Assembly (NCBI GenBank): GCA_021846565.1
Contig: JAJZWS010000002.1
Span: forward strand, 21,612-85,611
DNA from: Bacillota bacterium
GTDB lineage: Bacteria > Bacillota > Sulfobacillia > Sulfobacillales > JAIMBI01
Direction: 5' to 3'
DNA length: 64,000 nucleotides
Each line of letters begins with the position of its first letter. Position 1 is the stretch's first letter. Position numbers and translations under genes: made by a program. Below are positions 7,756 through 57,829 of this stretch, one piece after another. The notes below the pieces were generated by a model. That model did not search any database, was not told the origin of the DNA, and was given only the letters and a program-made list of their open reading frames with translations.

Positions 7756-8520
7756 TCATCCCGAGTCCCGGAGGACCGTCGCCAGGAGCACCACCAGGGG
7801 GCCCACAGCACTCAGCCCCGAGTACCAGAGCGATGCCATGGGGTCGCATGCGCAGCGAGGCTCTGCTGCGACGTCTGCGAGCTGGGGGTGTACTGGGTGT
7901 AATACCCCAGCACCATGGGACCGACCGCGCGGGCGGACGGGGGAGGCGTCGGCGATTGGGGCGCGGGACGCTTGGGGGCGGGCGCGGGCGCGGATGCCTG
8001 CGGATTTCCCGGTGCACCCCACGCCGGCGGGGTGTCGCCCAATTGGCGAAGCACCGCGTCACGGGTCCGTTCGTTGACGGCCTCGATGACCACCAGGCGG
8101 TTGCGGCGCTGGAACGCCATGACGGCTTTACCGGTCTCTCGTCAAAAATTCCGTTCGCGGGCCCGGGGTGGTATCCGAGTTGGGTGAGGTCGCGCTGGAG
8201 CGTCTGCACGGCTGGCCCCGCATCCCCCAGCGACAGGCGCGGGGGGCCAGGGCCCCCGAGAGGGGCGTGAACCGCCCGCCTCCCTGGGCATCCTGCTCCC
8301 GCCCGTGCGTGGAGTGAAACCGGACCACTGCGGCTGGTCTGCGCGGTCCTAATCGCCCCTCGACGCCACGCGTCCTGTAGCCGAGATTAGTCAAGGTTGC
8401 GTGCACAATGGCCACCGGGATTCCCCGGCTGCTCGGCGGGTACAGTCCAGCCGCATTCGTCGCGACGGCCGCGGCGGCCATCATGATGCCGGCTGTGGCC
8501 CATCGGACAGGGATTGTCAT
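7756..8520 (-). pseudogene. secreted protein with two peptidoglycan-binding repeats and the start of a GH18-like domain, frameshifted and truncated
   Basis: Signal-like MTIPVRWATAGIMMAAAAVA. PG_binding-type repeats (LTNLGY..GRLGP..AVVRF and LGDAGPAVQTLQRDLTQLGY..GIFDE / GKAVMAFQRRNRL). Then MVLGYYTQY.. The pieces lie in at least three different frames and end before a full catalytic domain. Confidence 0.55.
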
Positions 8521-8900
8521 TAATCCGGGCTGCCCCTTCCAGTGCGAACGGTGATGTGAGTCCGGGGGCGCGCCGGCCAGACGCTCCCCGAGGAAAGCCT
8601 GCACCCAAAGGTTCCTCCGTGTCAGACAGCCCAATGCCGACTGGCAATGTTGGTGAGACTTTGCGCAGGTGCCTGTCCGAGGCGATAAAGGATGCTATAC
8701 CTGTTACCCGGGGAGGACGCCGCTGGGGGACGAGGACGGGTCGTGGGCGCATCGGCCCAGATTCTGGCGCCGGGTCGACCAATGTTGGGGCCCGATGGGG
8801 CGCCACACCAGGGTTTCCTGTACAATCAACGATGCTGTACTATTCGCGGACGGGATCCATCGGGCGCCACGCCACCCACCGGGTGGGGAAGGGAGAACCT

Positions 8901-10874
8901 GTGCGCGACTGGATGCAGCCTTGGACCAGATTCGACATGCACCGCGTGTTGTTTTTGGTCCGCGTGGTGGTCTGGATCGGTGCGGGCTTCTTTGCGTTTG
9001 GCTCGCACGAGGACGGATGGGTGTGGCTCGGGGCGGCCCTCGCGCTGGGTGGCGGCGCCATCGCCGTGCGGGTGTGGGACTACTCCACCTGGAACCGTGC
9101 GGCGATTGGGATGGATGTGGTGGCCATTACCCTGGCGGTGCGTCTGAGTGGGGGCGTGTCCGGCGACACTTGGGTGCTTTACGGCGGGGAGGCGCTGGCA
9201 CTCACCACGTACGGGTCGCTCCGGTGGACCGCCATCGGCAGTGCTGTCATGATTGGCGCTTTCGCGGTGGGCGCCTGGCCGCGCACCGCGAGCGCGGCCT
9301 TTGCCTTTGAAGCCGCCGTGCTCGCGGTGTTCATCCTGAGCGCGGGCATGCTGGGGCGCGGGTTCGTCCTGCAGCAGCAGCATGTGCGCGAGGACCGTCG
9401 CCGCCTGATGCAGTTGGATAATCTGCGCGTGATCCAGGAGAACCTGCTGCGCGAGGCGCCGCTGGAGGTGCTGTTGCAGAATCTGCTGCGGCAGGGCTTG
9501 CAGCTGGTCGGGCTGGACTACGGGTACATCGGCGTGCCGGTGGGGCATGGCCAGATGCAGATGGTGACGCAGTTGGGGTTTCCGGAGCGGGGATCCAACC
9601 GCGCGTGGGACATCGCCACGTCGGAGCCCACCGCGACGGCGGTGCGGGTGGGGGATCTGGTGGTGCACAACGCTGTGGCGGCGGCCGACCTGGACGAGCC
9701 GCATATGGAAGACTTCGGCAGCGTCGCCGTCGCACCGCTGTACGACGGGCGGGCGCTGCTGGGAGTGCTGGCCGTGGGCAGTCCCGAGCCTGACATGATC
9801 ACCGCCGAGGTGGCTCCGCTGGTCACGGCCCTGGGCACGCTGGCAGCGGGTCAGATTCGCTATGACCGTGAGCGGGCGGAGTCCCGCAAGCGCGGCCGGC
9901 TTCTGACGACCCTGGAGCGCGTGGGGCGGCTCATGAACAGCAACCTTCAGATGAAGCTCTTGCTACCCACCCTGCACCAGACGGTCGCTGAGGAACTCCA
10001 GATTGACAGCTTCGTGGTCATGCTGACGATTCCGCACGACCCGGGTCAGGTGTACATGGCGTACCTCTTTGACGACGGCAAGCGCTATCCGTCGGAGGTG
10101 CTGCCGTTACCGGAAACTGGTCCCACGGCCGAAGTGATTCGCTCCGGCGAGGCACGGCGGTTTGAGGGGGTGCCGAGCGGCGCCGGAACCATTGGGTCGT
10201 CGAAGGAAGTGGTGGGCATGCTGGTGGCGCCCTTGCGGCACGAGTCGCGAGTCATTGGCGCGATTAGCGCCCAAAGCTATCGCGCGACCTACGACCAGGA
10301 CCACCTGGACTTTTTATCAGCGGTCGCGAGCCAGGCCGCCATTGCAATTGAAAACGCCCAACTGTACCAGCAGACGGAGGAGATTGCCCTGACCGACCAC
10401 ATGACCGGGCTGGGCAACTCGCGCCGGTTTCAGGCCGCGCTCGGACAGATGCTGGAGCAGGCGGATGCCGAGGAGCATCCGCTGGCCCTCCTGATGATCG
10501 ACTCCGACTCGCTGAAGCGGGTCAACGACCAGCATGGCCACAAGGCCGGCGATGCCCACATTCTGCAGCTGGCGCGCGCGATCAGCGGCAACGTGCGGAA
10601 CGGCGACGTGGCGTGCCGCTATGCGGGCGATGAGTTTGTGGTCATTCTGCCCGAGACGCCGCTGGCCGCAGCCGAACGCGTCGGGGAACGCATTCGGCAA
10701 GCCGTGGCCGAAGGGTTTGTTTGGGACGATGGGGCGCACGTGGCTACCTCGGTCAGCATCGGCGTGGCGCCCTATCTGAACGGCATGACCATGGAAGGCT
10801 TGTTCAGCCGGGCGGACCAGGCGATGTACCGCGCCAAGCAGGGTGGCCGCAATCAGGTCATGGTGATGCAGTAG
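8901..10874 (+). CDS. membrane-anchored diguanylate cyclase-family protein (TM region, two GAF-like domains, GGDEF domain with AGDEF motif)
   Basis: Start GTG at 8901 follows AAGGGAG. Hydrophobic N-terminus. C-terminus has LTGLGNSRRF, LKRVNDQHGHKAGD, RNGD (RxxD I-site) then RYAGDEFVVIL. The ORF-track extension from 8514 is rejected. Confidence 0.85.
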   Translation: MRDWMQPWTRFDMHRVLFLVRVVVWIGAGFFAFGSHEDGWVWLGAALALGGGAIAVRVWDYSTWNRAAIGMDVVAITLAVRLSGGVSGDTWVLYGGEALALTTYGSLRWTAIGSAVMIGAFAVGAWPRTASAAFAFEAAVLAVFILSAGMLGRGFVLQQQHVREDRRRLMQLDNLRVIQENLLREAPLEVLLQNLLRQGLQLVGLDYGYIGVPVGHGQMQMVTQLGFPERGSNRAWDIATSEPTATAVRVGDLVVHNAVAAADLDEPHMEDFGSVAVAPLYDGRALLGVLAVGSPEPDMITAEVAPLVTALGTLAAGQIRYDRERAESRKRGRLLTTLERVGRLMNSNLQMKLLLPTLHQTVAEELQIDSFVVMLTIPHDPGQVYMAYLFDDGKRYPSEVLPLPETGPTAEVIRSGEARRFEGVPSGAGTIGSSKEVVGMLVAPLRHESRVIGAISAQSYRATYDQDHLDFLSAVASQAAIAIENAQLYQQTEEIALTDHMTGLGNSRRFQAALGQMLEQADAEEHPLALLMIDSDSLKRVNDQHGHKAGDAHILQLARAISGNVRNGDVACRYAGDEFVVILPETPLAAAERVGERIRQAVAEGFVWDDGAHVATSVSIGVAPYLNGMTMEGLFSRADQAMYRAKQGGRNQVMVMQ

Positions 10875-13165: not shown

Positions 13166-13241
13166 GGGGATGTAGCTCAGTTGGTAGAGCGCGTGAATGG
13201 CATTCACGAGGTCAGGGGTTCGACCCCCCTCATCTCCACCA
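13166..13241 (+). tRNA. tRNA-Ala (GGC)
   Basis: Hand-folded cloverleaf. Acceptor GGGGATG/CATCTCC includes G3:U70. Anticodon loop ATGGCAT. T-loop TTCGACC. CCA is encoded. Confidence 0.9.
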
Positions 13242-13246
13242 GATTT

Positions 13247-13322
13247 GGCCCCATGGTCTAGAGGCCTAGGACACCACTCTTTCAAGGTGGTAACCCGGGT
13301 TCGAATCCCGGTGGGGCCACCA
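13247..13322 (+). tRNA. tRNA-Glu (UUC)
   Basis: Acceptor GGCCCCA/TGGGGCC. Anticodon loop CTTTCAA. TTCGAAT T-loop. CCA is encoded. Confidence 0.9.
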
Positions 13323-13330
13323 GCTTGTGG

Positions 13331-13407
13331 GGGCCATTAGCTCAGTTGGTTAGAGCATCCGCCTTTTAAGCGGAGTGTCGAAGGTTCGAATCCTTCATGG
13401 CCCACCA
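13331..13407 (+). tRNA. tRNA-Lys (UUU)
   Basis: Acceptor GGGCCAT/ATGGCCC. Anticodon stem TCCGC/GCGGA with loop CTTTTAA. CCA is encoded. Confidence 0.9.
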
Positions 13408-13443
13408 GTCCCGTTTGTGCTAGAATCCAGTTTAGAGCGTCGC

Positions 13444-13519
13444 AGGCCAGTAGCTCCAATGGTAGAGCAGCGGTCTCCAAAACCGCGGGTTGGGGGTTCG
13501 AGTCCCTCCTGGCCTGCCA
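13444..13519 (+). tRNA. tRNA-Trp (CCA)
   Basis: Acceptor AGGCCAG/CTGGCCT. Anticodon stem GCGGT/ACCGC with loop CTCCAAA. CCA is encoded. An extended -10-like TGCTAGAAT lies at 13418-13426 just upstream. Confidence 0.9.
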
Positions 13520-13569
13520 ATTTGTTTCACCGCCCCCGGGCGAGGCGCCCCGATAGGGCAGTTTTTGTG

Positions 13570-13644
<75 letters not shown>

Positions 13645-13664
13645 TGACCTTGAACCAGAGGAGC

Positions 13665-13740
13665 GGGGCGGTAGCTCAGTTGGTAGAGCACCAGCTTTGC
13701 ACGTTGGGGGTCAGGGGTTCGAATCCCCTCCGCTCCACCA
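13665..13740 (+). tRNA. tRNA-Ala (UGC)
   Basis: Acceptor GGGGCGG/CCGCTCC with G3:U70. Anticodon loop TTTGCAC. CCA is encoded. Confidence 0.9.
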
Positions 13741-13750
13741 AAAATTTTGT

Positions 13751-13825
13751 TGGGGAGTCGCCAAGCGGTAAGGCACCGGCCTTTGGAGCCGGCATTCGCA
13801 GGTTCGAATCCTGCCTCCCCAGCCA
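13751..13825 (+). tRNA. tRNA-Pro (UGG)
   Basis: Acceptor TGGGGAG/CTCCCCA. Anticodon stem CCGGC/GCCGG with loop CTTTGGA. CCA is encoded. Confidence 0.85.
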
Positions 13826-13928
13826 ATTCTTTGGGCACCCGGTGGCTCGCCAGCGGCGCCGAAATGTGACCGCATCAGCGGTCGGGCCTGCAAGCCCGGT
13901 GCGGACACTACGATGGACCCGAAAGGCG

Positions 13929-14458
13929 GTGCACGATCCCGACGGCGAGGCGTGGCTTGCCTGCATTGCCGAAGGCGGTCAGGATGCCAGGATGCGGTTT
14001 TACGACCGATGCGTTGGGCGGGTGGCGGCTCTTGTCGGCGCACGACCCCGCCGCAGGTCGGCAGATGAAGTCATTCAAGAGGTGTTCTTGATGGTGGGGC
14101 GGTCTGCGGCCCGTGCTGATGCAGAGCGCTCTGGGGTGGCCACGTGGCGTTTGGTGATGGCCCGGAGCCGATCGGTGGATGTGCTCCGCAGGGCGCGCCG
14201 CACCGCAGCCGGGGATTCGTGGGAGGATGTGGTGGTGCCGCCGACGGCACCGGACGTCAGGAGCAGGATGCCGTCCGCCACGCGGTGGTCGACCTCGCGG
14301 CGCATCAGCGGGAGGCACGCACCATGGTGTACCGGGAAGGCTTGTCGGGTCAGGCGGTGCTGCGCCAGCGGGTGCCGCTGGGCATCCTGAAAACTTGTTG
14401 GCGACTGGGGCTGGCCAAATTGCGGGACGTGCCGGGGGCTGAATCCGATGCATCATGA
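13929..14458 (+). pseudogene. ECF (sigma-70 family) sigma factor, frameshifted between regions 2 and 4
   Basis: Region 2 (DEVIQEVFLMVGRSAA..VATWRLVMARSRSVDVLRR) is in one frame. Region 4 (REARTMVYREGLSGQAV..VPLGILKTCWRLGLAKLRD) is in another. The break is near 14255-14265. Confidence 0.6.
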
Positions 14459-14953
14459 GGCATGCCGCGACAGCCTGCCGCTGTGGGTGGCCGGGGCTCG
14501 CGGGCCGGTGGAAGCCCAGGCTGTGCAACAGCATTTGGCGGCGTGCGGCGCCTGCAGGGTGGAGCGGGGTACCCTCACCACCGCCGTCGATGAGTGTGCC
14601 ACGGCGGCGGCCGCCCCGGATTGAACCGATCATGCGGCCATGCGGGCCGCCTTTCCGGTGGTCGACTGGCGCCCGTGCGACCGCGGGTCCGCTCACGCAC
14701 CTGCGCGGTGCTGTGGGCGGTGGGGTATCGGCTCTCCCATCGTGTGGGTGCGCCGCCTGCCGCCGCTCGCCTCCGGCCAAACCTCCGAGGGCCGGTGGAT
14801 TGTGAACGGCAAGCCGGTGGCGGCCAGCACCTTTGGTCAGGGCCGCATCTGCTGACGCGGCCCCTGGCCGCCCGTGCGTTCGCCATTACGGTGGAACCCA
14901 CGGGCGGCACGAGCCGGCCCCCCACCCCCGTGCTGACCAGTACACCCATATGA
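14448..14953 (+). pseudogene. anti-sigma factor (zf-HC2 N-terminus plus RskA-like C-terminus), fragmented
   Basis: A 58-codon ORF (14448-14624) carries HLAACGAC (H-x3-C-x2-C) and overlaps the sigma gene end. RskA-like pieces (VWVRRLP..GKPVAASTF and FAITVEPTGGTSRPPTPVL) lie in two other frames. Confidence 0.5.
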
Positions 14954-14967: not shown

Positions 14968-16074
14968 ATGGCGAATGAACCTGGGGGGCCGCCGCCCGCC
15001 GCCACGCTGATGGCGCTCCGCGAGGAGTGCAACCGCTTTCTGAACGGCCACGGCTACCGCCGGGCTGGGGATTTTCTCGCCATGATTCCCGCCGACGTGG
15101 AGATGGACCGCTACGGACAGGGCGGCGTGGTGGCCGCGTTCGAACAGGAGGTGGCCCGGCTGCTGGGCAAAGAGGCCGCCCTGTTTGTGCCCAGTGGCAC
15201 CATGGCGCAGCAGACCACGCTTCGAGTGCACGCCGACCGGCACGGCCGGCGCGGGGTGGTCTTTCATCCCCACTGCCACTTGGACTGGCACGAAGAGAGG
15301 GGCTACGAGCGGCTCCATCACCTGCATGGCCTGCCAGCCGGCCGCCTGGGTGTGCCCTTAACCCTGGAGGACCTGGAGCAGGTGGCCGAGCCGCCGGCCG
15401 CCCTTCTGCTGGAACTGCCCCAGCGGAACCTGGGGGGGACGCTGCCCAGCTGGGACGCGCTGGTGGCCCAGACCCAGTGGGCTCGTACCCGCGGCGCGGC
15501 GGTGCACATGGATGGCGCTCGCCTTTGGGAGGCGTTGCCCTTTTACGAGCGGTCGGCGTCTCAGGTGGCGGCTCTCTTTGATACGGTCTACGTATCGTTC
15601 TACAAGGGGTTGGGCGGCATCGCGGGGTCGGCGGTGGCGGGGCCGGCCGAGCTCGTGGCGGAGATCGCCCAGTGGCGCACGCGCCACGGCGGACGTCTGG
15701 TGGCGCTTTGGCCCTACGCCGCCGCGGCGCGCAGTGCGCTCGCCCAGCGGCTTTCCAAGATGCCCCAATACTATGCCCATGCGCGAGCTGTGGCTGGCGC
15801 GCTCGAGGGGCTTCCCGGCGTGGAGGTGACGCCCAATCCACCGGTGTCGCCCATGATGCATGTCCTGCTGCCCGGGACGGCGGGCGATCTGGCCACCCGC
15901 GCGGCCGTCCTGGCCGCCCGCGAGCACGTGTGGACGTTTGCCCAGCCGTTCGCCAGCGACTCGCCGCATCGCCAGCGCATTGAGTTTTCGGTGGGCGACG
16001 CCACGCTCGGCTGTGCGCCGAGTGAGGTGCGGCGCTGGTTGGCTGAGCTGGCCGGGCTCCCGCCCGGGGCCTGA
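14968..16074 (+). CDS. threonine aldolase / beta-eliminating lyase family PLP enzyme
   Basis: DRYGQGGVV..FEQEVARLLGKEAALFVPSGTMAQQ. SFYKGLGG provides the candidate PLP lysine. AGGAGG RBS. Confidence 0.8.
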   Translation: MANEPGGPPPAATLMALREECNRFLNGHGYRRAGDFLAMIPADVEMDRYGQGGVVAAFEQEVARLLGKEAALFVPSGTMAQQTTLRVHADRHGRRGVVFHPHCHLDWHEERGYERLHHLHGLPAGRLGVPLTLEDLEQVAEPPAALLLELPQRNLGGTLPSWDALVAQTQWARTRGAAVHMDGARLWEALPFYERSASQVAALFDTVYVSFYKGLGGIAGSAVAGPAELVAEIAQWRTRHGGRLVALWPYAAAARSALAQRLSKMPQYYAHARAVAGALEGLPGVEVTPNPPVSPMMHVLLPGTAGDLATRAAVLAAREHVWTFAQPFASDSPHRQRIEFSVGDATLGCAPSEVRRWLAELAGLPPGA

Positions 16075-16222
16075 CGGTCACCGCCCCGGCCCACCCCCGC
16101 CCGCTGACGGGGGTGAGCTTTGGCTGTCCCCGGGTATCGGGCGCAGACCCACAGGAGCTCGATCCACGTATCCTCCGGCATCCAGCAAGGCGTTCGTCCC
16201 CACGAGAGGGCAGAGGCGAACG

Positions 16223-16895
16223 ATGCGAGACGACACCCGCAGGTGGTTTCGGTGGAGATTGGGGGCGCTCTGGTTGCTGGACGGGGTGCGGCCGCTGTAA
16301 CCGGTCATGTTTGATCGAGCGGTGCCTCGCATGTTTGTGGCCAGCGCAGGCGGCTCCCCGACTTGGGTCGTCGCCCGCGTTGGCTCGGGCTCCTGCGCTG
16401 GCCAATGGCGGCGCCGTGGCGGCGCACGTGGGCATCGGGGTGCTCATCCTGATGCCCAACCGGGTGCGGTGGCAGTGGGGATTGCGGTTCTCCATGGTCT
16501 GGGGGGCCGTGGTGTGGATGTTCGGCGAGGCATTCGGCGGGATCCTGGCACCCGGCGCCAGTGTGTGGACGGGCGCGGCGGGACCCGTGCTGATTTATGT
16601 GCTAGGCGCGTCGCTGCTGCTCTGGCCCGACGCCTGGAAGGAGCGACGGGCAGCCATGCCGCAGCCCACTGTGTTGTCGGATCCCGTGGCACACGTCCGC
16701 GGCCGCGCGGCCGCTGTGGCGGCTGCGGGTGATCCTGAATCGCGTCCCGGCCGGGAGGGAGGCGCGCGCGGCGCGGCATGGGACCCCGGCGAGGCCCCTG
16801 CCACACCGCCAACGGCCGTCCGTCATTCGGGGGAGGGCGTCAGCGGGCCCAGTGCGTGCAGCTGCCGCAACAGCTTCTGGCGAAACGGCAGGTGA
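16223..16895 (+). pseudogene. integral membrane protein with an in-frame TAA and a frameshift
   Basis: MRDDTRRWFRWRLGALWLLDGVRPL, then TAA (16298-16300), then PVMFDRAVPRMFVASAGG continues in the same frame. The hydrophobic remainder (HVGIGVLILMP..MVWGAVVWMFGEAFGG..LIYVLGASLLLWP) is in another frame. Confidence 0.45.
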
Positions 16896-17125
16896 TCCTT
16901 CGCCAGCCGAACCGCGAGTCGGGCCACCAACAACTCTGCCAGATCATTGTTGCTGTCCGGTCCGGATACCAAGAGGTCGGCTGTCATTTCGGCACCCAAA
17001 TCGGCCAGGAGGTCTCGTCCGCGTTCTGAAGCCAGAAACCGATGGAGCATGTCTTCCATCCGTGGCTCCAGGTGTCGAATGACGCGCGCCGCCATGTATC
17101 GTTCGACCCGTTCTGTCGGTCCCAT
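16823..17125 (-). CDS. hypothetical protein (100 aa)
   Basis: MGPTERVERYMAARVIRHLEPRMEDMLHRF... RBS AAAGGGG lies about 8 nt upstream of the ATG at 17125. No family recognised. Confidence 0.45.
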   Translation of the reverse strand: MGPTERVERYMAARVIRHLEPRMEDMLHRFLASERGRDLLADLGAEMTADLLVSGPDSNNDLAELLVARLAVRLAKDHLPFRQKLLRQLHALGPLTPSPE

Positions 17126-17556
17126 TGGGATCGCCCCTTTTGTTTCGCGCCAGCGAGGCGCCTGTCTGCTGTAACGGTACCAGAACGGTGTTCGACACGC
17201 AGGACGCGTCGTACCGCCTTCCCACGCCCGTCTGCTGTCGAGTCCAAGCGTTGGATCAAGCGGGTCCTGATCCAGCGCGGTCTGGCAGGAGTGACGATGG
17301 CGGGCGTTGCTCTGACGATGGCCGCGGCGCCGGGCGTCCAGCAGTTCAAGCAGATGGGGGCCGGCCATTTCAATGACGTCGGTAAACTACGTGGGGGCGA
17401 CCAAAGCCGGCAACAGCGCTGGCCAAAACGCGGCGGTGACGGCACTCGGACAGTAAAAGGCGCAGTTCGTGTTTTTGGCGGGAGCGGATCCGCACGTAAA
17501 CGCGGTCCAGGGCCAAACGCTCCGTGTCGGTTCATGGATGGGTTCGACGCAGATTG

Positions 17557-18074
17557 CAGGCGGAACCACCGTCCACGCGGCACCACCTGAAAGCCCGCTC
17601 GGGCGTAGGCGGCGGCCGGGGCCGGATAGTCCGTCCGCGGTCCCGTGTTGATGAACACCTCGCGACCCCCCCACTGCGCCACGATATCGGACACGGCGCG
17701 CCACAGCGCCCTGGCCAACCCGAGACGCCGGTGCGCGGCCACGACGCCCAGCGGTTCGACTTCGGCCGTAAGGGTCGCGGGATCCCACCAGCCCAGACAC
17801 GACGCGGCCCGCGTGCCGTCCGGGGCCTCGACCACCAGGTCCATCCGCGCATCATAGAGGCAGGTGTGGCGGACGGCGGTGTAATCCGACGCCGTGAACC
17901 GGCTCGTTTGGTCCGGGGATACGTCGGGTGAAACGCGGACCCCCACGGGAGGTCGATCGGCCGCCAGGCCGCCCGGTGCACGTCGACACGGGCCGCGTGC
18001 TCGCCGGGCCCGGTGGGACGCACGCGATAGCCCGGGGGGAGCCCCGGATCTTCACGCTGCGCGCGGCGCATCAT
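17557..18074 (-). pseudogene. GNAT-family N-acetyltransferase, frameshifted
   Basis: The N-terminus (MMRRAQREDPGLPPGYRVRP..HRAAWRP) and the acetyl-CoA-binding core (LGVVAAHRRLGLARALW..AYARAGF) are in different frames, breaking near 17940. No native stop follows the core. Confidence 0.5.
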
Positions 18075-18161
18075 GCCCACCGCGCTGCCCTCTAAGCCCC
18101 GCCGGCTGTCAGGCACAAACTCCGCCGCGGCGGCGGCATCAGCGAGAGCCCGGCCGCCGTC

Positions 18162-18440
18162 TCACACCACGACCGTGGGCAAACTCGACGCTTCGCCTTC
18201 CACGGCCCAGCCAATCAGGTGGGTAGCGACGTCGGGGTGGCTGGGGTCGACCTGCACGGCCCCGGGCTGGCCCCGGCCCATCCCACCACCTGCGCGCCGG
18301 CGCGTGCCACAGCCATCTCGCTGGTGTCGGCAGAACTTCTGCCACGCATCGAGGTGCATCGGCATCCCCCTTGTGCGCCATGCATTCGGCGCGGAGGGTT
18401 GGAATCCGGCCGGCAGTGGGCGCCGGGTGAGTCGCCCCAC
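18162..18440 (-). pseudogene. degraded paralogue of the MbtH-like gene at 19812-20090
   Basis: The C-terminus AVQVDPSHPDVATHLIGWAVEGEASSLPTVVV parallels AVKADPSHPAPADHLLRWAVHTETSGTPALVV. The upstream part (SEMAVARAGAQVVGWAGAS) aligns only in another frame. The shift sits at a G run. Confidence 0.35.
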
Positions 18441-18533
18441 CGCGGAGGGGCCGTGCCGTGGCGGCGTTTCAGTGCCAGGACACGAGCTTGTACCTAAAGG
18501 GCCGACAACCCTCGCGACGCTGCCGACTCAGAT

Positions 18534-20090: not shown

Positions 20091-20094
20091 GACC

Positions 20095-20884: not shown

Positions 20885-21076
20885 TGGGGCTCACTCCTCT
20901 CAGGGCGAGCAAAAAGGCCGTGGCTGGGGGATTCGGCGCGGGGGGATAGAGTCCTGCCGCGCGGGGAGTCGTGTGGTGGTGGCCATTCTGGCGCGCCGCC
21001 ACGCTCCCGGCGCCGACCGGGCCACACCGCGCCGAACTTCTGTCAGCAGCAACGCGAAGGGTGTCGTCACGGACAT

Positions 21077-44606: not shown

Positions 44607-44661
44607 GGTGCCTCCCGACGGGGTGTTTTACCCCACCCATCGGGAGCGCGGGCGAAAAGGT

Positions 44662-45759: not shown

Positions 45760-45801
45760 GGCGGCCTCCCGACGCTTTATGGCAGGCGCCGCCGCCGGTC
45801 G

Positions 45802-46239: not shown

Positions 46240-46900
46240 GTCAATACACTCCTTTGGGGTCGGCGGCGCGCCGACCCTGCAAAGGCACGGTATCGCACTT
46301 GACCGGCACGGACAAGGGCGGGGGCGTGGCGACACCGCGATCGCGAGGCGTGACTCGCTGGAGGCCGTCCCTGCCCCCGCGTTCCTCGGTAGCCTGATGC
46401 GGGGACGCGAGGAATCCGGCAACCCCCCATTTTCCGGCCATGCGGCATGATCTCCGAGTCCAGGGCGTCTCGGGGGTCACCGTTGGCCGCGTCGTGTGCG
46501 GGCGGCCTACGGGCCGAAGAGGGGGTGGGCGGCGGTCCGGAGCCGGTGCACGCGCTAGAGGCCACCCAATGGGCGATCGAGGTCGTGTCGCTACGGTGGC
46601 GGGTCTGGATGGCCAGGTCCGCTTTTCGGCGTCACTGTGCTGGGCAGGATTGCCGGCGGCTGGGAACCTGCCTCTTGCGGGCTTGATGCCGCCCCCATCG
46701 CCGGCTGACCTCTCGCGAGCGCCATGCAGCCGTCCGGACGTTGGACAGACCCAGGCCCGCATGAAGGGGACCCACGATGAGATCCGGGCGGGAACAGCGC
46801 CAGTGGCTCATCCCCGGAAATCAGTCCACACGCAGGGGGATGTGACGGGAGGGCGGGCAGGGTGGTGCGCACGCCTGCAGGGCGCCACCTGTCGACGCCT

Positions 46901-47314
46901 TTAGGGGTGGTCGTCAGGGGACTGCGCCCCCCGCTTAAGCATCTCGCGGTCGAAGGTATAGACTCGATGATGGGGTAGGTAACTCAACAGGACGCAGTCG
47001 GCCCAGTCCAACCGGCTGGCGGAAAACAGCTGTAGGGCATCCAATGTTGCCTGCCGGTCCGCGACGTCGAGGCCATCCAGCTGCAGAAAGTGCAACAACT
47101 CCTCGGCCACCGCCTGCCGCGTCAGACCGAGGCCGGACGGTGATACCGCGACATACACGACCTCCGACAGCACCACCGGATGGAGGGCGAGACGAACCAG
47201 CCCACGCCGTGCCGCGTCGAAAAGTTGCTCGGCTCCATCCGCCTGTTCGGGCGGCCAACCTTGGAGAAATCGCAAGATGACGTTGGCATCTACGAAGGCA
47301 GTGCCGCCGCCCAT
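46901..47314 (-). CDS. vapC: PIN-domain ribonuclease toxin
   Basis: FVDANVILRF. Acidic residues are spaced as in PIN domains. The start abuts the vapB stop. Confidence 0.8.
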   Translation of the reverse strand: MGGGTAFVDANVILRFLQGWPPEQADGAEQLFDAARRGLVRLALHPVVLSEVVYVAVSPSGLGLTRQAVAEELLHFLQLDGLDVADRQATLDALQLFSASRLDWADCVLLSYLPHHRVYTFDREMLKRGAQSPDDHP

Positions 47315-47569
47315 CTAGTCCTCCTCGCGGTAGTGCGCGGCCCAGTCGCTCGCGCGTTGCTGACGCAGTGGAGCCAAGTCCTCCACGGGAACGGCAGTGC
47401 GCCACACCCCTTTGAAACTGGACAGCGCTCGCTTCCGAATGGGAGTCAGTACAATGTCGTCTCCGCGGAATTCAAATCCCACGCGGTCTCCAGGTTCCAG
47501 GCGCGCCGCCTCCCGAATGGGTTGCGGGATACTAATTTGTCCCTTGGAACTCAACTTGGCGATTAACAT
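47315..47569 (-). CDS. vapB: AbrB/SpoVT-MazE-type antitoxin
   Basis: AKLSSKGQISIPQPIREAARLEPGDRVGFEF. AAGGAGG RBS lies 8 nt before the ATG at 47569. Confidence 0.8.
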   Translation of the reverse strand: MLIAKLSSKGQISIPQPIREAARLEPGDRVGFEFRGDDIVLTPIRKRALSSFKGVWRTAVPVEDLAPLRQQRASDWAAHYREED

Positions 47570-48202
47570 GCGTCTTGGCCTCCTTGAAAGTATCATACCA
47601 CGAGCGCGGGCCGACTCCGCGTGCCAGACCAAGCTCGAGGAAGCATGTTGGAACACGGACGCGGTGCATGGCCGGTGATTCGCTTTTGGGTGACGTGCGA
47701 GCAGGGGGCGTCCGCAAAGACGCGCTACTGAGGCGTCGGCCAGCGAAGACCGCTGCCGTATGCCGTCACCCGCCTAAAGCGCTTGGGCTGTTGGCCCGGA
47801 CCACGGCCTAAAGACAGAAACGTGGCCCGCCACCGGCGGGGCTCAAAAAAACGCGGACCAGGGGCGACCCGTGCTTGGCGTCAGCTGGCCGCCCGACGAT
47901 CTCACGGGCCCCATTTGGTCGCCACCGGCAACCGGGGTATTCAGCGGGCCGCACGTCTGTGAGCGGGGCAGTGGGAAGGTGCGGTTCGGAGGCGCCGTGC
48001 TGGAGACGGCGCGCAGGGCGGGCCGCCGCACCTGGTAGGCGGTGACGGCTATGGGGCCGAGCGAGAGCGGTGTCGCGGCCATTGACGGGACGGCCGAGCG
48101 GACCGTAACGCGGGTGCTGTCGGGTCTGCCGCTGACGAGTTGCGCCCGGCGTGGTTCAGGGACGCCGTGTGAGGGATATCGCGGGCCTCCCCCCGTGGTT
48201 CC

Positions 48203-48556
48203 GTGTTCCTGGCGGCCTTCCCTCCGGAAGCTCGGGTGCCCCCCACCTGCGGCGCTGACCTGGGGTGGACGATGGCGTGCGCGTTTGCCCATCCGGCACA
48301 TGCCGGAGGCATGCAGCGGGACTTGGGGGGAAGATGTGAAACCGTGGCCGACCTGGAGCGGGCCTTTTCGTCCGCGGCGGGTAAGCGGGTGAGCCACTGG
48401 CCCGGCATGTGGTGGGGACTGAGAGCCTTCTACCAGATGGCTGCCCTGGCGGCGTTTCTGGCGCACCCTCCCGAGGGCGGGACCGCCGCGCTGCCCATAA
48501 CCCTCCTGCCGTTCTCGGAGTGGCTGGCGGCGCGGCGCCTGTCGGTCGGTGGTTAG
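48203..48556 (+). CDS. hypothetical protein, possibly the 3' part of a frameshifted gene starting near 48042
   Basis: The C-terminal half looks protein-like (VADLERAFSSAAGKRVSHWPGMWWGLRAFYQMAALAAFL). The upstream ORF at 48042 joins it only through a shift at a C run. Confidence 0.25.
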   Translation: MFLAAFPPEARVPPTCGADLGWTMACAFAHPAHAGGMQRDLGGRCETVADLERAFSSAAGKRVSHWPGMWWGLRAFYQMAALAAFLAHPPEGGTAALPITLLPFSEWLAARRLSVGG

Positions 48557-49728
48557 TAGCCGTTGCCGGGGTAGCTCCACAGATGGTGGCCAATCGGGTT
48601 CTTCGGGTTGCCGGGGGTGATGCCGGCCGGCAGAAAATCGAGCCCGTCGGGGATGTTCAGATAGCCCGGCGCGCTCCCGGGGACGCCCGTGTGGCCGTAC
48701 TGCCACACGATCTTGTTGGTTTTGGGGTCGATGATGAGGACCCGGTCGTTTCGGTCGTCGTTGAGGGCAATCATGCCGTTGGGGAGCTCCACGGCCAGCG
48801 ACGGGTGGTTCAAGGCGGCACTGCCAGAGGTGTAGCGGTATTCCCACAGCACCTGGCCAGTGTGCGGATTCATCTTCACGATGGCGCCGGGCTTGGTGTA
48901 GAACGCCACAATCACGTTGCCGTGGGGCGTGAAGTTGGCGTCCGACGGGTACGAGAGGCCCGCGGGGAAGTGCAGGGTCCAGACGACTTGGCCGCTCTTG
49001 TTGACCAGCACCGCGTCGTTGCCGTTGATCTGGGTGATGAGCGTGCCGCCGTTCGGCGCCGGGAAGTCCCCATTGGGCGCGCCATACGTGGTGGGGGGGT
49101 TCACCGCCTGCACGTCGGTCTGGCCGTATTGTTTGATGATCTGCTTCGTGTTGCGGTTGATGAACAGGATGCGCTGGTTGACGATGTCGGCGACCGTCAC
49201 CACGTCGCCGCCCGGCTTGGAATACAAAAAGGCGTCGTCGGGCGTGTTGAGATATCCGGGCAAAGATCCCGGCACCGCATGGTGACCGTACTCCCAGACA
49301 ACTTTTTTGCTGTTGAAGTTGATGATCGCGATGGTCTGGAAGTTCTCCTCGTTCGTGATGATCTCGTTGAAGTGGGGTCCGAAGAAGGCGTCGTCCGGCT
49401 CGGTGAAGGGCTGATTGGGGGTGGTGCCGGGCGACGGGAACTGCCAGACGATGCGCTTGCCGGGCGTGACGATCAGGATGCGGCTGTTAAAGGAGTCCGC
49501 AATCATCAGGTCGCCTGGCAGGTACGGGTTGGCGTGGTGGCTCTTCCACCCCAGCTTGACGGCCGGGGTGGCTTTCGGCTTGCCGTTGGAGGTAGTCCGG
49601 TTATGCGTCTTGGGATGGGTGAGCGGCTTCGGGGGAGCGGCCTGGTTTAAGCCGCAGGCGCTGAGCGCGAGCGAGAGGAGGCCGGCAGCGGCCAGCAGGC
49701 GGCGTGAGGCGGGACGAAACGCATTCAT
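48553..49728 (-). CDS. lipoprotein with six beta-propeller-like repeats
   Basis: Signal peptide with lipobox LALSAC. A repeated motif (RILIV..KRIVWQFP, KKVVWEYGH, GQVVWTLHFP, GQVLWEYRY, NKIVWQYGH). AGGAGGG RBS before the ATG at 49728. Confidence 0.7.
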   Translation of the reverse strand: MNAFRPASRRLLAAAGLLSLALSACGLNQAAPPKPLTHPKTHNRTTSNGKPKATPAVKLGWKSHHANPYLPGDLMIADSFNSRILIVTPGKRIVWQFPSPGTTPNQPFTEPDDAFFGPHFNEIITNEENFQTIAIINFNSKKVVWEYGHHAVPGSLPGYLNTPDDAFLYSKPGGDVVTVADIVNQRILFINRNTKQIIKQYGQTDVQAVNPPTTYGAPNGDFPAPNGGTLITQINGNDAVLVNKSGQVVWTLHFPAGLSYPSDANFTPHGNVIVAFYTKPGAIVKMNPHTGQVLWEYRYTSGSAALNHPSLAVELPNGMIALNDDRNDRVLIIDPKTNKIVWQYGHTGVPGSAPGYLNIPDGLDFLPAGITPGNPKNPIGHHLWSYPGNGY

Positions 49729-50775: not shown

Positions 50776-52764
<1,989 letters not shown>

Positions 52765-52779
52765 GCCCGAGGCGCATGA

Positions 52780-52815
52780 GGAGTCGGGGGTGGCCCCGGC
52801 TCCTTGATTTATTTT
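52780..52815 (+). terminator. intrinsic terminator
   Basis: GGAGTCGGGG-gtgg-CCCCGGCTCC (10 bp including one G:U) followed by TTGATTTATTTT. Confidence 0.65.
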
Positions 52816-52887
52816 CGCCGCCCCCCAAAAACCTCTTGACACAGTAGCTAGCCTGCAAGGCCAGCTTGTCAACAGGAGGGTGCTCAC

Positions 52888-53271
52888 ATGGACGTGCTCG
52901 TCTTTATCGGCCGAGTGATTTTCGGTCTGTTTCTCTTGTACTCCGGCGTCAAACACTTCACCGGCTACCAGGGACTGAAGGGGTTTGCGAGCTTCAAGAA
53001 GCTCCCGACCCCGGGAGCCAGCGTCGTGGTGTCGGGGCTGCTGCTGGTGTTTGGTGGGGTCACCGCGCTCGCAGGGTGGCTCTTGCCCTACGGTATGATC
53101 GCGGCCGCGCTGTTCTTGCTGCTGGCCAGCGTCACGTTGCACAATTACTGGGTGGAAACCGACCCTGCGGGTCGATCGGGCCAGCAGGTGAACTTCAACA
53201 AGAATCTCGCCCTCATGGGCGCGGCCTTGGTGTTCGCCCAGATGCCCCTCACCGTGTGGTGGATTCACTGA
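52888..53271 (+). CDS. DoxX-family membrane protein
   Basis: 127 aa, four hydrophobic segments, GRVIFGLFLLYSGVKHF. AGGAGGG RBS. Confidence 0.8.
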   Translation: MDVLVFIGRVIFGLFLLYSGVKHFTGYQGLKGFASFKKLPTPGASVVVSGLLLVFGGVTALAGWLLPYGMIAAALFLLLASVTLHNYWVETDPAGRSGQQVNFNKNLALMGAALVFAQMPLTVWWIH

Positions 53272-53454
53272 CGGCGGCGTGAGCCAACGGGTCACAGGCA
53301 GCGGCGGCCTCGCCGGGAAGCTTCGGGCTCAACCGGTCGAGGCGCCGCGTGCAGCGGTGGACGTCGTCGGCGGAGCGATGATGCCGGCCCCCGGGGTGTG
53401 GACCGGGCCTGGCGAGCAACCGATGAGCAGGGCGTACGGGCGCCCCCGGGGGCG

Positions 53455-53718
53455 TCACGCCAGCGGGTTGTTCATTTCCCGATAGAGAATCCATTGCCCG
53501 GGCCGCTGCACGTACAACTCGAACCAGCGCCCTTCATCAGTGTGGACGACGAGGCGGCGTCGGTGCCGGCGCAACCGCCAGTTGCGGCGATAGTCCGGTT
53601 CACGAACGTCGGACAGCACCTCGGCAATCCGATACTGGCGCTGTCGCCAACGGAACGCGGTAGGCGTTCCGGGGACTCCCCACTCCACCACCACCGGTTC
53701 GCTGATCACACGCTCCAT
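53455..53718 (-). CDS. small basic hypothetical protein (87 aa)
   Basis: FRWRQRQYRIAEVL..WRLRRHRRRLVVHTDEGRWFELY..WILY. GGTGGAG lies before the ATG. Lies downstream of the GNAT gene on the same strand. Confidence 0.5.
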   Translation of the reverse strand: MERVISEPVVVEWGVPGTPTAFRWRQRQYRIAEVLSDVREPDYRRNWRLRRHRRRLVVHTDEGRWFELYVQRPGQWILYREMNNPLA

Positions 53719-53807
53719 GCTCCACCGTCCTATGGTCAGTGGTCAGCCTCCCTGCGCGCGGTGCCCGCGACGGTCGCCCATGGGCAGGTCTGGCGGCCTT
53801 GCCGTGT

Positions 53808-54209
53808 TCACGAGGATTCCGTGAGCCGCAACCCGCTCGGATGACGGACGAATCCCAGTCGTTCGTAAAACGCTTCGCCGCCCGCGACGCTGAACAGCGC
53901 GATGTAGGAAAACCCTCGCCCTAGGAACGGGGCCACCGCCCGCCTTACCAGGGCCGTTCCAATCCCGCGGCGCTGGTGGTCCGGGTGCACGATGACGTCC
54001 CACAGCGTAGCGTAGTACACTCCGTCGGTGGTGACGCGGGTCGTGCCCACCAGATGCTCTCCATCCCACGCCGTCACCACGAGGTTGGAGCCCAGCAGAC
54101 AGCGCATCACGGCTTCCGGATCGCGCCCCTCTGCAAACGGGATCGTGTCCCAGAGCGCCTTGACGGCATCCGGGGTGCGGGGTGGCTCGGTCGACAGCTG
54201 GATGGCCAC
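53808..54209 (-). CDS. GNAT-family N-acetyltransferase
   Basis: VHPDHQRRGIGTALV (acetyl-CoA-binding motif). GGGAGGGG RBS lies 5 nt before the GTG at 54209. Confidence 0.75.
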   Translation of the reverse strand: MAIQLSTEPPRTPDAVKALWDTIPFAEGRDPEAVMRCLLGSNLVVTAWDGEHLVGTTRVTTDGVYYATLWDVIVHPDHQRRGIGTALVRRAVAPFLGRGFSYIALFSVAGGEAFYERLGFVRHPSGLRLTESS

Positions 54210-54399
54210 ACTACCCCTCCCTTGGTTGCTTGATTGCTTGCCTTTGCGTCCGCATTCTCGGGTAGGGCGGTCCTCCGGTGGGGATGGGGCCACGACCGAT
54301 GCCCACCCTGGGGAGCGCTATACTCGTGGCAGCGGAGCGCACCCAGGATGCTGGATGGGCTGTCGCTGTGGTTCGCACTCCCAAGGAGGCTGGTCAGTC

Positions 54400-55359
54400 A
54401 TGGAACCATCGGACGCGGAGACCGCCCAGAAAACGGCCGCCCTCGGGTCCATTGTAACGTTGCAGTCGGCGACCCTCGCACTGACCTTGCTGCCGGAGCG
54501 CGGCGCGCTCGCGTGCTCGCTGGTGCATCGGCCGAGCCAGACGGAGCTCTTGCGGCGGCCAGCCAGTCTGGCCGAGCTGGATGCCGAACCGTTTACCCAC
54601 GGCATTCCGATTCTTTTCCCCGCCGGGCGGATGGCCGGTGCCCAGTGCACGGTGGACGGGCACGCGTTTCATTGGCCCGTCAACGACACCCTGGGCCCGA
54701 ATCATCTGCACGGGTTTTTGTGGAACATCCCCTGGCAGGTGCGGGAGCAAACCGGGCACCGCGTGCGCCTGGAACCCACGGACCGAGGCATGAAAACGGC
54801 GTCCGAGATGTTCGGGGCGGCGTTTAGCGCGCGCATCGTGTACACGCTGGACGACGCGTGCATGGAGTCGCGGCTCACGATCGCCAATCGGTCTCGTCGT
54901 GCGGTTCCCTTTGGGGCCGGGTATCACACGTCCATTGCACTGTCCAAGCCCTGGCTGCTGCAGTTGCCGGTCGGCCGCGAGTGGGAGATGGACCGTGAAA
55001 GTTTGCCCACCGGACACCTTTTGGACGAGCCGGCCACGCTGGTGAACGTGGACCGGGCCCTCTCGGTGCCGGACCTGGTTTCTGACACCTGCTATCGGCC
55101 CGAACCCGGCCCGCCCAACGTGGCACGTCTGTGGGATCCCCAGTCGGGCCTGGCCATCGCGATGGAGGGCGAGGCACCGCTCAGCCAGTGGGTGGTGTAC
55201 CGCCCGAACCTACGGGCCCCCTTTGTGAGTGTGGAACCGGTCACGTGGGTCCACAATGCTCCCAATCTCTCACTGCCGGCGGCACTGACGGGCAACGCTG
55301 CGCTCAAGCCCGGCGAGGAGCGGAGCCTCACGTATCGGTGGACCGTCACGGCATCGTGA
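54400..55359 (+). CDS. aldose 1-epimerase family protein
   Basis: GIPILFPAGRM, NHLHGF, GAGYHT, EPVTW. AAGGAGG RBS. Confidence 0.75.
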   Translation: MEPSDAETAQKTAALGSIVTLQSATLALTLLPERGALACSLVHRPSQTELLRRPASLAELDAEPFTHGIPILFPAGRMAGAQCTVDGHAFHWPVNDTLGPNHLHGFLWNIPWQVREQTGHRVRLEPTDRGMKTASEMFGAAFSARIVYTLDDACMESRLTIANRSRRAVPFGAGYHTSIALSKPWLLQLPVGREWEMDRESLPTGHLLDEPATLVNVDRALSVPDLVSDTCYRPEPGPPNVARLWDPQSGLAIAMEGEAPLSQWVVYRPNLRAPFVSVEPVTWVHNAPNLSLPAALTGNAALKPGEERSLTYRWTVTAS

Positions 55360-56531
55360 CGGGAGGGTTCCATCGCCTGCGGCGTGCGGCCGGGGGCTAC
55401 CCGGCCCCGGTGTGGCGGCTTACCGTGGGCACCGCGCTCCACAGGGGGGTCGTTTTTTGGCCCTTCACCACGCTTAACGTCCATGTGGTGCTGGGCCGCT
55501 CGCCGGCGCTGGCTGGCTTGGTGCTGATGGCGCAGTCGGCCGCCGCCCGATGCTCTGGGGCGTCGGGCTGTCTGTCGCCCTGATGCCGGGCATCGCGCTG
55601 GTGCACGGCTTTTGGTCGTTCGCGGTCCTGGTAGCGCTGTTTGAGTTTACTTCTAGCCTCGTAAGCCCCTCGCTGTATGCCTACGCCGCCACCATCTGGC
55701 CCGAGGGCGGGCGACAAGCTTTCAATGCGCTGTACGTGGCGCGCGACGCCGGCATCGTGTTTGGCACGCTTGCCGGAGGTCTGGTGGCCGCGGTGTCCCG
55801 GCCTCTCACGTTCCTGGCGGCCGCGCTGTTGTTTGTGGCGTTCTGGGTCATGGCGCAGTGGGGATATCGGGGACCCGCCTTCGACCGCGTCCACCACGGT
55901 CCGTCGGCCATGGTTCCGGCACCGCGATCTTTCTGCGGGTCATCCGGTGTGTGGCTCTTGATGGTCGGGCTGGGTCTCGACTGGATGGCGTACACCCAGT
56001 GGCAAACGACGACCGCCGCGTACATGCACCGCGAGGGGTTTTCGCTGCCCGCCTACAGCGTGCTGTGGACGGTAACGGCGTCCTGATTCTCGCGGGCCAG
56101 CCGGTCACCAGCTGGGTCGCCCGCCGATGGCCGGCGGCGCGGCACCAGTTGGTGGTGGGGAGCGGCTTGTTCTGCGCCGCCTATGGCTGGTTGATGCTGT
56201 CGCACGCGTATGCGGGCTACGTGGTGGCTATGGTGCTAGGGACATTTGGTGAGATGCTGGTGTGGCCGGCCGTGGCCAACGCTGCGGCGCAGCTGGCTCC
56301 GGCGGGCCAGGAGGGGCGGTATCAAGGGTGGTGGCTAGCGCCACGTCCGCCGGACGCATGGTGGGATCGGTAGTGGGCGGCCTGCTGGTGGCCGGGGCGG
56401 CCCGGCCCCTCTTTTATGGAAGGATGGTCGGGGCGTACCTGGTGGGCCGGGGGGCGTATTGGCTCTACGGACAGCTGGCGGGACGCCCCACCGCCATGAA
56501 CAGCTCGGGAGCCGCGGCAGCTGGGGGCTGA
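55357..56531 (+). pseudogene. MFS transporter with at least three frameshifts
   Basis: Consecutive hydrophobic MFS-like segments occupy the ORFs starting at 55131, 55550, 55858 and 56262 (all + strand), each in a different frame from the ORF that precedes it. The first break is at a C run near 55545. Confidence 0.55.
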
Positions 56532-56788
56532 GGAGTCGGGCTGGCGGCCCACCGGCCAGCGGCGATACGAGACACGACCGAGCGCCACCCCATCAAGGGA
56601 TCGGAGGGATGCCTACGGGGGGCGGTGCCACGACACCCCACAGGACCCCCCATCCCCTGCTGAACGCGGGCGCGTTCGTCCCGAAGCGGCCGGACGGCGG
56701 CCTCATCACGCGCGCACGAACAGAGTAGTCACACGGATGCTCCCCCGCGTAGCATACAGTCACCGAGTGCACTATCCGGAGGTCGCTT

Positions 56789-57829
56789 ATGGGGGTGGAG
56801 TGTGCGCCCGTTCCTTACGGGGCTCCGCTGGCGGCGGAAGATGTCGTAGGCGGCAGGCAGCCTTGGAGACGATCGAACGCCGGCTGCGTCTGGGATCCAG
56901 GGTCATGGTTCCCGCGCCCCGGCGAACCGGGAAGACGATTGCGGCGGCGGAGGTTCCGCGCCGGTTTATGGTGGGGAGGCGCGCGTGCTCACGGTACGTG
57001 TCGACCTGTTGGCTTGCTCCACGGCCGAAGAATTCGCCGTGAAGCTGACGACGGCGGTCTTGGCCGACCGCCATCGCGCGTTCGGAACGATGACGCTGTC
57101 CGGAGCGGACAGCGAGTGAGTGGCTGGACGAAGCGTTGTCCCTGCCGGAGCGTTTAGCTGCGGCGGCTGCCGCATCGTGGTGCTGGTCGATGAGTTCCAA
57201 AAGGTGGAGCGGCTTGGCGGCGAACGTCTGACGCAGCGCATGCGGGCACACTGCCAGCGTGCGAAGTTGGCCGCCTACCTCTTGCTGGGCCGCTGTCCGA
57301 CGGTGCTGTCTCATCTGTTTGCGGACCGACACGCGGCGCTGTGCCGGTTCGCCGACGCAGTGCCCGTGCGGCCGCCGGAGCCCGAAACCTGGGTGGCGTA
57401 CGTGTCGGCCCGTTGGTGACGGCGGGGTTCGAGATCGCCCCGGCGGCGCGGGGCCTGCTGTTGGACGCGACGGGGGGACATCTCGATGACACGGTCCGCG
57501 CTGCCCATAAGGCATTCTCGCAGGCGCGTGCCCTCGGACGTGGTGAGGTGAAGCTGGACACCGGGCACAGGGCGGCGGACCGTACGACGGAGGGGCTGGC
57601 ACTGGGCTCTTCGCAGTTGAGCGAGGCGGATCGATGCGGGATGTCGAGAGACCGCTTGCGCGAGCTGGCTTACGGCCGGCGCCCCTATGCCGGGGGGCGG
57701 GATCCTTCCACCGTACGCCGGACGTTGGGTCGACTGGTCGCGTGGGCGCGGGTCGTAAGGGAGAGGCGGGCCCAGGACCGGTTTGTCGAGACACTCTTTG
57801 GCCGCGACATCCGCCGTGGATTGGGATGA
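56789..57829 (+). pseudogene. AAA ATPase (PF01637/DUF234-like), multiply frameshifted with an in-frame TGA
   Basis: Walker A (PAPRRTGKT), Walker B region (IVVLVDEFQKV) and later segments are spread over all three frames. GGAGG RBS before the ATG at 56789. Confidence 0.55.

Follow-up and report, generated by a model that had tools for sequence, protein, structure and literature searches.

The present analysis concerns a window of 64,000 nucleotides (nt) on contig JAJZWS010000002.1 of GenBank assembly GCA_021846565.1, in which genes interrupted by frameshifts, premature stops and deletions are unusually frequent. Twelve disrupted loci were located between 7.5 and 57.8 kb (Table 1); the dead DNA amounts to approximately 8.7 kb, 14% of the length of the window, and the dead loci to about 19% of its total. 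These loci are very probably true pseudogenes that have become fixed in an almost clonal population; the bacterium is uncultured and is labelled Thermaerobacter sp. by the NCBI. The lesions can be read directly, the direction of change is visible by comparison with intact counterparts in sister species, and the same breaks recur in other assemblies. The decay is clustered in accessory genes with envelope, regulatory and transport functions. Two cultured Thermaerobacter genomes carrying the same NCBI genus label as the proteins identical to those of the window, T. marianensis (PMC3035304) and T. composti Ins1 (PMC11008173), provide a reference for the expected density: 48 pseudogenes are found in 2435 genes and 54 beside 2363 genes, i.e. 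about 2%. The binomial probability of observing at least 12 dead loci out of 62 at a rate of 2.2% is 1e-8, and the density of the window exceeds chance. The cultured species display a G+C content of 72.5-73%, compared to 67.7% for the window.

Table 1. Disrupted loci of the window, followed by sites that vary among assemblies and by one further element (positions are those of the window).
Feature	Position	Strand	Lesions, basis or remarks
MFS transporter, C-terminal remnant (about 95 aa of 466)	7498-7736	-	tblastn with the intact L035 open reading frame (Pfam MFS_1)
PG_binding_1 + GH18 pseudogene (624 aa in relative)	7758-8825	-	many frameshifts; GH18 domain cut off by a 1.85-kb deletion
ECF sigma factor pseudogene	13900-14455	+	7-nt deletion at about 13937; 25-nt deletion at 14256
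Anti-sigma pseudogene (zf-HC2 + RskA_C)	14391-14950	+	premature stop codon at 14622; loss of about 170 nt between 14654 and 14739; 1-nt deletion at 14842
Membrane protein pseudogene	16223-16691	+	TAA stop at 16298-16300; 20-nt deletion at 16380; about 340 nt of the 3' part lost at 16645-16697
Secreted repeat protein remnant (full protein 482-536 aa)	17249-17504	+	256 nt left
GNAT acetyltransferase pseudogene (388 aa)	17542-18614	-	deletions of 1 nt at 17929, 7 nt at 18259 and 22 nt at 17541
Truncated fragment, paralogue of the N-terminal part of the GNAT	19815-20303	-	tblastn, residues 6-182 of the GNAT in relatives matched at 41-47% identity
DUF5694 pseudogene	20201-20899	-	start ATG to ACG at 20882-20884; 1-nt deletions at 20209 and 20169
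MFS_3-type transporter pseudogene	43309-44627	-	split by a 1-nt deletion at 44043; Pfam N and C halves in two frames
MFS_1 transporter pseudogene	55401-56486	+	three frameshifts (frames 3, 2, 1, 3); Pfam
AAA_22 ATPase pseudogene	56789-57829	+	1-nt deletions at 56850, 56976 and 57406; 4-nt deletion at 57166; deletion of about 89 nt near 57105
Polymorphic nonsense SNP, GAG to TAG	6512	+	dnaE2-like gene; GCA_027419435.1 only
Polymorphic GA deletion	19656-19657	-	in two other assemblies; interrupts MFS gene 18534-19805, intact apart from this
Indel sites among assemblies	19656; 21313; 46551; 58702-58706		GA deletion; G deletion; GT insertion; variable G-run
TPP riboswitch	22048-22147		in front of the permease-thi operon

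The attribution to the genus label is derived from database identity. The window is 100% identical over 21 kb to contig JAPTVX010000092.1 of the GenBank metagenome-assembled genome (MAG) GCA_028065455.1, and proteins identical to those of the window are entered at the NCBI as 'MAG: ... [Thermaerobacter sp.]'. The Pfam content of the window (TatC, MGDG synthase, YkoP, DUF881, DoxX) is of a Bacillota type and not mycobacterial.

Two sister MAGs, DS3.bin47 (JAJYPH01; contigs L033 and L035) and WH5.bin24 (JAKADP01; contig L034), were obtained from a single scan of species-representative genomes. Both are syntenic with the window, with nucleotide identities of about 75-92%. The reading frames of the two MAGs were set against the window using tblastn, after which the insertions and deletions (indels) were listed and the domains checked against Pfam. 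A GC3 frame plot (G+C at third codon positions) was too noisy for frame calling at a GC3 of about 0.8, and Pfam scans of packed open reading frames (ORFs) and of three-frame translations were used in its place. An intact full-length counterpart was found in sister-species contigs for 9 of the 12 dead loci. In the two MAGs the sigma, anti-sigma, GH18, MFS, GNAT, DUF5694, secreted protein and sortase genes are all intact and display full-length Pfam matches. Disabling lesions could be placed to the base in 11 loci, and at most lesions the two relatives agree with each other, which sets the direction of change.

The lesion spectrum obtained in this way is overwhelmingly deletional. The deletions measure 1 nt, mostly outside mononucleotide runs, or 4, 7, 20, 22, 23 and 25 nt, and larger segments of about 89, 170, 340, 1000, 1430 and 1850 nt were also lost. 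A single-base insertion, a start-codon change and two nonsense changes were also recorded. An earlier note, made from the letters of the window, had placed several breaks in short runs of G or C; this proved mostly wrong, the lesions being chiefly deletions of several nucleotides and single-nucleotide deletions outside such runs. Its count of at least eleven disrupted genes has been borne out by the twelve loci of Table 1. Ten of the eleven genes it named are indeed disrupted (the PG-binding/GH18 gene, ECF sigma, anti-sigma, membrane protein, GNAT, DUF5694, secreted protein, two MFS transporters and the AAA ATPase); the eleventh, an MbtH-like copy, could not be found. The MFS remnant at 7498-7736(-) and the GNAT N-terminal fragment at 19815-20303(-) are additional to its list.

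The first cluster of lesions, at 7.5-8.8 kb, is best understood from DS3.bin47 (L035), in which an intact 466-aa MFS gene and a 624-aa gene, with PG_binding_1 and full-length Glyco_hydro_18 matches in Pfam, lie between dnaE and the GGDEF gene. In the window, a deletion of approximately 1.85 kb at about 7810-7818 has removed most of the MFS gene and joins what is left of it to the GH18 remnant. The MFS remnant additionally carries deletions of 23, 22 and 1 nt relative to L034 and L035 alike. The GH18 gene retains approximately its first 363 codons, residues 1-363 of the L035 protein matching frames -3, -2 and -3 in succession. The PG_binding_1 match ends at position 28 of the 57-position profile in one frame, and its remainder was read by eye in a second frame. 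Apart from the large deletion, about 101 nt are missing and about 46 nt are in excess in the GH18 region of the window with respect to the relatives.

The second cluster, at 13.9-20.9 kb, contains seven of the loci of Table 1. The ECF sigma gene passes from frame 3 to frame 2 with respect to L033 and L034; Sigma70_r2 is matched alone in one frame, where the intact relatives display both r2 and r4_2. The anti-sigma protein of L033 is intact, with zf-HC2 and RskA_C domains in Pfam. The membrane protein gene has a further 1-nt deletion at 16190, upstream of its assigned start. Both substitutions cited in the earlier note hold against the relatives: the TAA at 16298 stands in place of CAA or CAG (Gln), and the ACG at 20882-20884 in place of the ATG of L034. 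In the secreted protein remnant an internal deletion of about 1 kb fuses the signal peptide to a single repeat; the remnant also carries an in-frame stop and one inserted nucleotide, at 17382. A deletion of about 1.43 kb at 17503 has also removed the adjoining sortase gene, which is present in both relatives. The GNAT gene and the GNAT fragment match each other at 70% identity (18162-18323 against 19812-19980). In the DUF5694 gene the 1-nt deletions end the domain at position 158 of the 185-position profile, compared to positions 6-185 for the intact L034 protein. Directly upstream of the decayed sigma/anti-sigma pair lies a cluster of seven tRNA genes (13166-13825; Ala-GGC, Glu, Lys, Trp, Gly, Ala-UGC, Gln), which is kept in both sister MAGs.

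The third and fourth clusters are located at 43.3-44.6 and 55.4-57.8 kb. The orthologue of the MFS_3-type gene on contig L044 carries at least six frameshifting deletions, all different from the one in the window; the gene has therefore decayed independently there. On sister contig L037 the acs-like gene runs straight into the PPIase, PQQ and TatC genes, in contrast to the arrangement of the window at 43351-48552. The dead MFS gene, the neighbouring sigma-like gene, a PIN/MazE pair and a number of small ORFs thus represent accessory DNA specific to the lineage. The sigma-like gene, at 44662-45759(-), is a 365-aa open frame whose first 150 residues match ECF sigma r2/r4 weakly and whose 200-residue tail has no assignment. 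The possibility of a frameshift fusion was rejected, as a single open frame is found in all assemblies. Single-nucleotide polymorphisms (SNPs) among the assemblies number 6 non-synonymous and 2 synonymous in this gene, which suggests weak constraint, and 4 to 0 in the MFS gene at 36601-37797. In the fourth cluster, three full-length MFS homologues of 410-427 aa (P0144, P0145 and P0147) map by tblastn over the four frame segments of 55401-56486, a gene that was called in other assemblies as fragments of 178 and 102 aa. The adjacent ATPase, once its frames are joined, is 67% identical to an intact 379-aa AAA_22 protein (P0121) over 96% of the length of the latter in a large protein database, and a Pfam search with the frame-joined sequence returned no match. 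In the sister contigs L046 and L047, P0121 is the intact syntenic copy, found in the same context as in the window (ATPase, HEPN, DUF881); the deletions of the ATPase in Table 1 are relative to these contigs. Approximately 550 nt upstream of the intact gene, L046 also contains a 65-codon duplicate of the ATPase 5' end (L046 positions 3-200).

Frames interrupted in this manner are not necessarily dead. Annotated pseudogenes can turn out to be genuine genes or artefacts of a technical kind, and function has been argued for many of them (PMC11017572); programmed frameshifting, transcriptional slippage or active split products could in principle maintain the activity of some of the present genes. 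The MFS gene at 43.3 kb, with its single 1-nt deletion, and the DUF5694 gene, whose frame stays open in the wrong frame and is called as 345 aa, would be the natural candidates. As in the cases discussed in PMC11017572, gene callers report the frameshifted frames as fragments. Unlike those cases, the lesions of the window are reproducible across assemblies, mostly multi-nucleotide or multiple, and domain-removing. At 10 of the 12 loci several lesions, stops or large deletions that remove catalytic domains are present, the 1-nt deletions are not associated with a slippery run, and the MFS gene at 43.3 kb was lost a second time in L044. A programmed frameshift would consist of one conserved shift at a slippery site, kept in relatives, and the relatives are unshifted. 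Retained function is consequently judged very improbable.

The reality of the breaks was assessed using assemblies other than that of the window. Exact-protein look-ups led to 31 loci from 16 assembly or run accessions. Eight ENA assemblies of single samples contributed, as did three Logan re-assemblies and six MAGs from GenBank, four of the latter being third-party entries. Together the loci span window positions 1034-49590 and 51487-64000 at 99.7-100% identity. Among all 31 loci only six indel sites were observed, none of which coincides with a lesion of the window. For the 25 lesion coordinates checked, not a single indel occurs within 25 nt in the 3-9 other assemblies covering each of them; 22 of the sites are fully identical across assemblies and the other three show a SNP in two assemblies. 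A sequencing or assembly artefact, for instance through homopolymer indels that missed the core genes by chance, is therefore excluded as a serious alternative, and we regard it as scarcely credible. A few of the 1-nt deletions do adjoin short G runs, e.g. at 14842 and 16190, and the G-run at 58702-58706 does vary in length. Most lesions are, on the contrary, deletions of 4-25 nt, deletions of 90 nt to 1.85 kb, or substitutions, and the absence of nearby indels extends to the assemblies of every data set. Indels confined to mononucleotide runs and irreproducible between data sets, as expected from homopolymer errors, are not what was found. The earlier note had kept homopolymer-prone sequencing as its alternative; by its own standard, recurrence in independent assemblies, that alternative is refuted. 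The frameshift-rich stretches of this MAG are thus biology and not error, and annotation pipelines should therefore flag the loci as pseudogenes instead of fragments or hypothetical ORFs.

The variable run itself is located at the 5' end of the DUF881 gene. Its length differs by -1, -2 or +5 nt among assemblies, which shifts the called product between 220, 238 and 272 aa. Either a true contingency-type repeat or a difficulty of assembly could underlie the variation.

Among the genes, the extremes are a single lesion (MFS gene at 43.3 kb) and over 20 lesions (GH18 region). Further knock-outs are polymorphic in the population. The GA deletion in the MFS gene 18534-19805 reduces the called product from 423 aa to 313 and 367 aa, and in L022 the dnaE2-like gene is called as two products of 696 and 326 aa. 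The top NCBIfam match of the latter is 'error-prone DNA polymerase', below the curated cut-off, which would fit a dispensable gene. Unequal numbers of lesions per gene, taken together with polymorphic lesions, indicate that inactivation occurred at different times and is continuing. The ongoing decay of dispensable genes proposed in the earlier note is supported by the intact sister counterparts, by the several lesions present in most genes and by these polymorphic additions. Its statement that core genes are spared stands for the window, where the long core genes are intact, and is not absolute, as one MAG has a nonsense SNP in the dnaE2-like gene. An ORF check was passed by each of the 45 intact coding sequences, to which a few small ones are to be added, and the PQQ-repeat gene is likewise intact. 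Between 22 and 43 kb, each real gene of L044 and L045 maps to the window full-length and in a single frame. In about 27 kb outside the window (L042 upstream, L001 downstream and the alternative flank L041), no called gene looks split. The genes at 22-43 kb being intact and none of those called in the flanks looking split, the decay is therefore clustered.

Several points weigh against the reading as genuine pseudogenes. The sister MAGs are of low coverage (2.5-4x) and contain breaks of their own, e.g. in a beta-eliminating lyase gene split in L034. An intact syntenic orthologue is lacking for three of the 12 loci, namely the GNAT fragment and the larger two of the MFS genes, which were assigned from Pfam profiles or from homologues outside synteny; support comes only from its paralogue for the GNAT fragment and only from Pfam for the MFS gene at 43.3 kb. 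Several of the assemblies share one ENA project and may sample a single site. SNPs among the assemblies comprise 67 synonymous, 43 non-synonymous and one nonsense change; their higher density in pseudogene DNA (3.0 per kb, compared to 1.6 per kb in intact genes), which would fit relaxed selection, is drawn from small counts. Finally, the density described as 'unusually high' may be that of a local hotspot, the window and about 27 kb of flanks having been examined.

According to this last explanation, decay would be limited to a few accessory clusters and not extend to the whole genome, which would be ordinary in other respects, with about 2% of pseudogenes. The lesions do fall in four clusters, 22-43 kb is fully intact, the outer 27 kb are free of visibly split genes, and genes are also missing or broken at these places in sister lineages (L033 has an MFS remnant, L034 the split lyase and L044 the decayed MFS gene). 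On the other hand, four separate clusters in 50 kb are already many, and a wider process is hinted at by the polymorphic knock-outs of two more genes and by the G+C content, which is below that of the cultured species (PMC3035304, PMC11008173). We consider the hotspot a strong possibility that stops a little short of the probable.

The gene decay is probably due to a relaxation of selection on functions that have become superfluous, together with the deletion bias usual in bacteria. Accessory genes have been inactivated and are undergoing erosion: the envelope genes, the ECF sigma/anti-sigma pair, three MFS transporters, the GNAT genes, the DUF5694 gene and the AAA_22 ATPase. The envelope genes among them are those of a PG-binding GH18 hydrolase, the membrane protein and the secreted protein with its sortase. 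A more specific order of events is conceivable, in which the loss of the sigma/anti-sigma pair silenced neighbouring sigma-dependent envelope genes (the membrane protein, the secreted protein and its sortase, the GNAT and DUF5694 genes), which then decayed. Seven dead or deleted genes do lie within 7 kb downstream of the dead pair, and all seven have intact, syntenic counterparts in the relatives whose pair is intact. Against the proposal, an intact lyase gene and an intact small gene are present inside the cluster, and the other three clusters contain no such regulator. Silencing by the lost regulator appears unlikely as an explanation. Similarly speculative, and in our opinion unlikely, is a reading in which an almost clonal, low-G+C Thermaerobacter-like lineage, widespread in space or time, has entered early genome reduction and is losing envelope, regulatory and transport functions after a change of lifestyle, the death of the sigma/anti-sigma pair triggering decay of an envelope regulon and the sisters losing the same genes in parallel. 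It is based on the identity of at least 99.7% across several data sets and on a G+C content about 5 points below that of cultured relatives.

Pseudogenes accumulate in the course of reductive or niche-restricted evolution in Mycobacterium leprae, Shigella, Salmonella Typhi, Yersinia pestis and Sodalis glossinidius. The window resembles such decay by its many independent lesions, often several per gene, in accessory transport, regulatory and envelope genes, by its intact housekeeping genes, by the proximity of an insertion sequence (IS) element and by its low-diversity population. It differs in that the organism is an uncultured relative of environmental thermophiles, host restriction is not in evidence, an IS expansion would be conjectural, and 64 kb were examined together with flanks that look normal. 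A deletional bias in the erosion of bacterial pseudogenes was reportedly described by Mira, Ochman and Moran in 2001. Nearly all frameshifting lesions of the window are likewise deletions, of 1 nt to 1.85 kb, with respect to intact relatives, in what is a local sample. The phenomenon is thus a known one, ordinary gene decay, met in a new organism and at unusually high local density. If this density held genome-wide, the organism would be a rare thermophilic Bacillota of the free-living type caught in active gene loss. The intact sisters and the segregating lesions would in that case provide a natural system for dating and ordering pseudogenisation events.

Two further claims of the earlier note were not confirmed. 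For the MbtH-like copy (PF03621), a motif regular expression and tblastn with two MbtH sequences gave nothing significant in the window, and Pfam scans returned no MbtH match among selected ORFs with coding-like composition taken window-wide or in the six frames of 16072-18540. A DinB_2-like protein at 29980-30681 displays an apparent N-terminal HicB/UPF0150-like motif (MAWVAELPGCYARGRTPQEALDKV), read by eye and not a database match; it may have been mistaken for an MbtH-like motif. The decayed toxin-antitoxin-like locus proposed at 1589-2290 has no Pfam or homology support, and tblastn with the PIN and Phd genes of L043 revealed no decayed copy in the window. Pfam scans of 1400-2400, 47560-48560 and 20900-22050 were empty, and a second DUF6504 copy was searched for and not found. 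The spacer between thiO and the DinB-like gene (28922-29968) may be another eroded insertion: its length is 1.05 kb in the window, only about 90 nt in L045 and 1.56 kb in L044, where the sequence cannot be aligned, and in the window it yielded no gene call, Pfam match or repeat match.

Structural differences among the assemblies were observed near the left end of the window. Three assemblies are identical up to position 1427 (...GGTTTCGTATAGCGG) and then display three unrelated continuations. The window contig proceeds into 1.1 kb of gene-poor DNA and an IS110 element, L041 into MFS, FxsA and flagellar genes, and L043 into a Phd/PIN pair; positions 1428-2568 are present in the window's own assembly only. 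The branching at 1427/1428 corresponds either to strain-level structural variation or to a mis-join at a repeat. One IS110-family element is recorded, at about 2569-4134. The contigs of five other assemblies stop in it or shortly past it, which would fit a repeat. Upstream of the window, L043 displays 98.9% identity. A second, more divergent strain or species from the same ENA project is represented by L014 (ERZ27237493), which is 97.2% identical to the window over positions 22536-27061.

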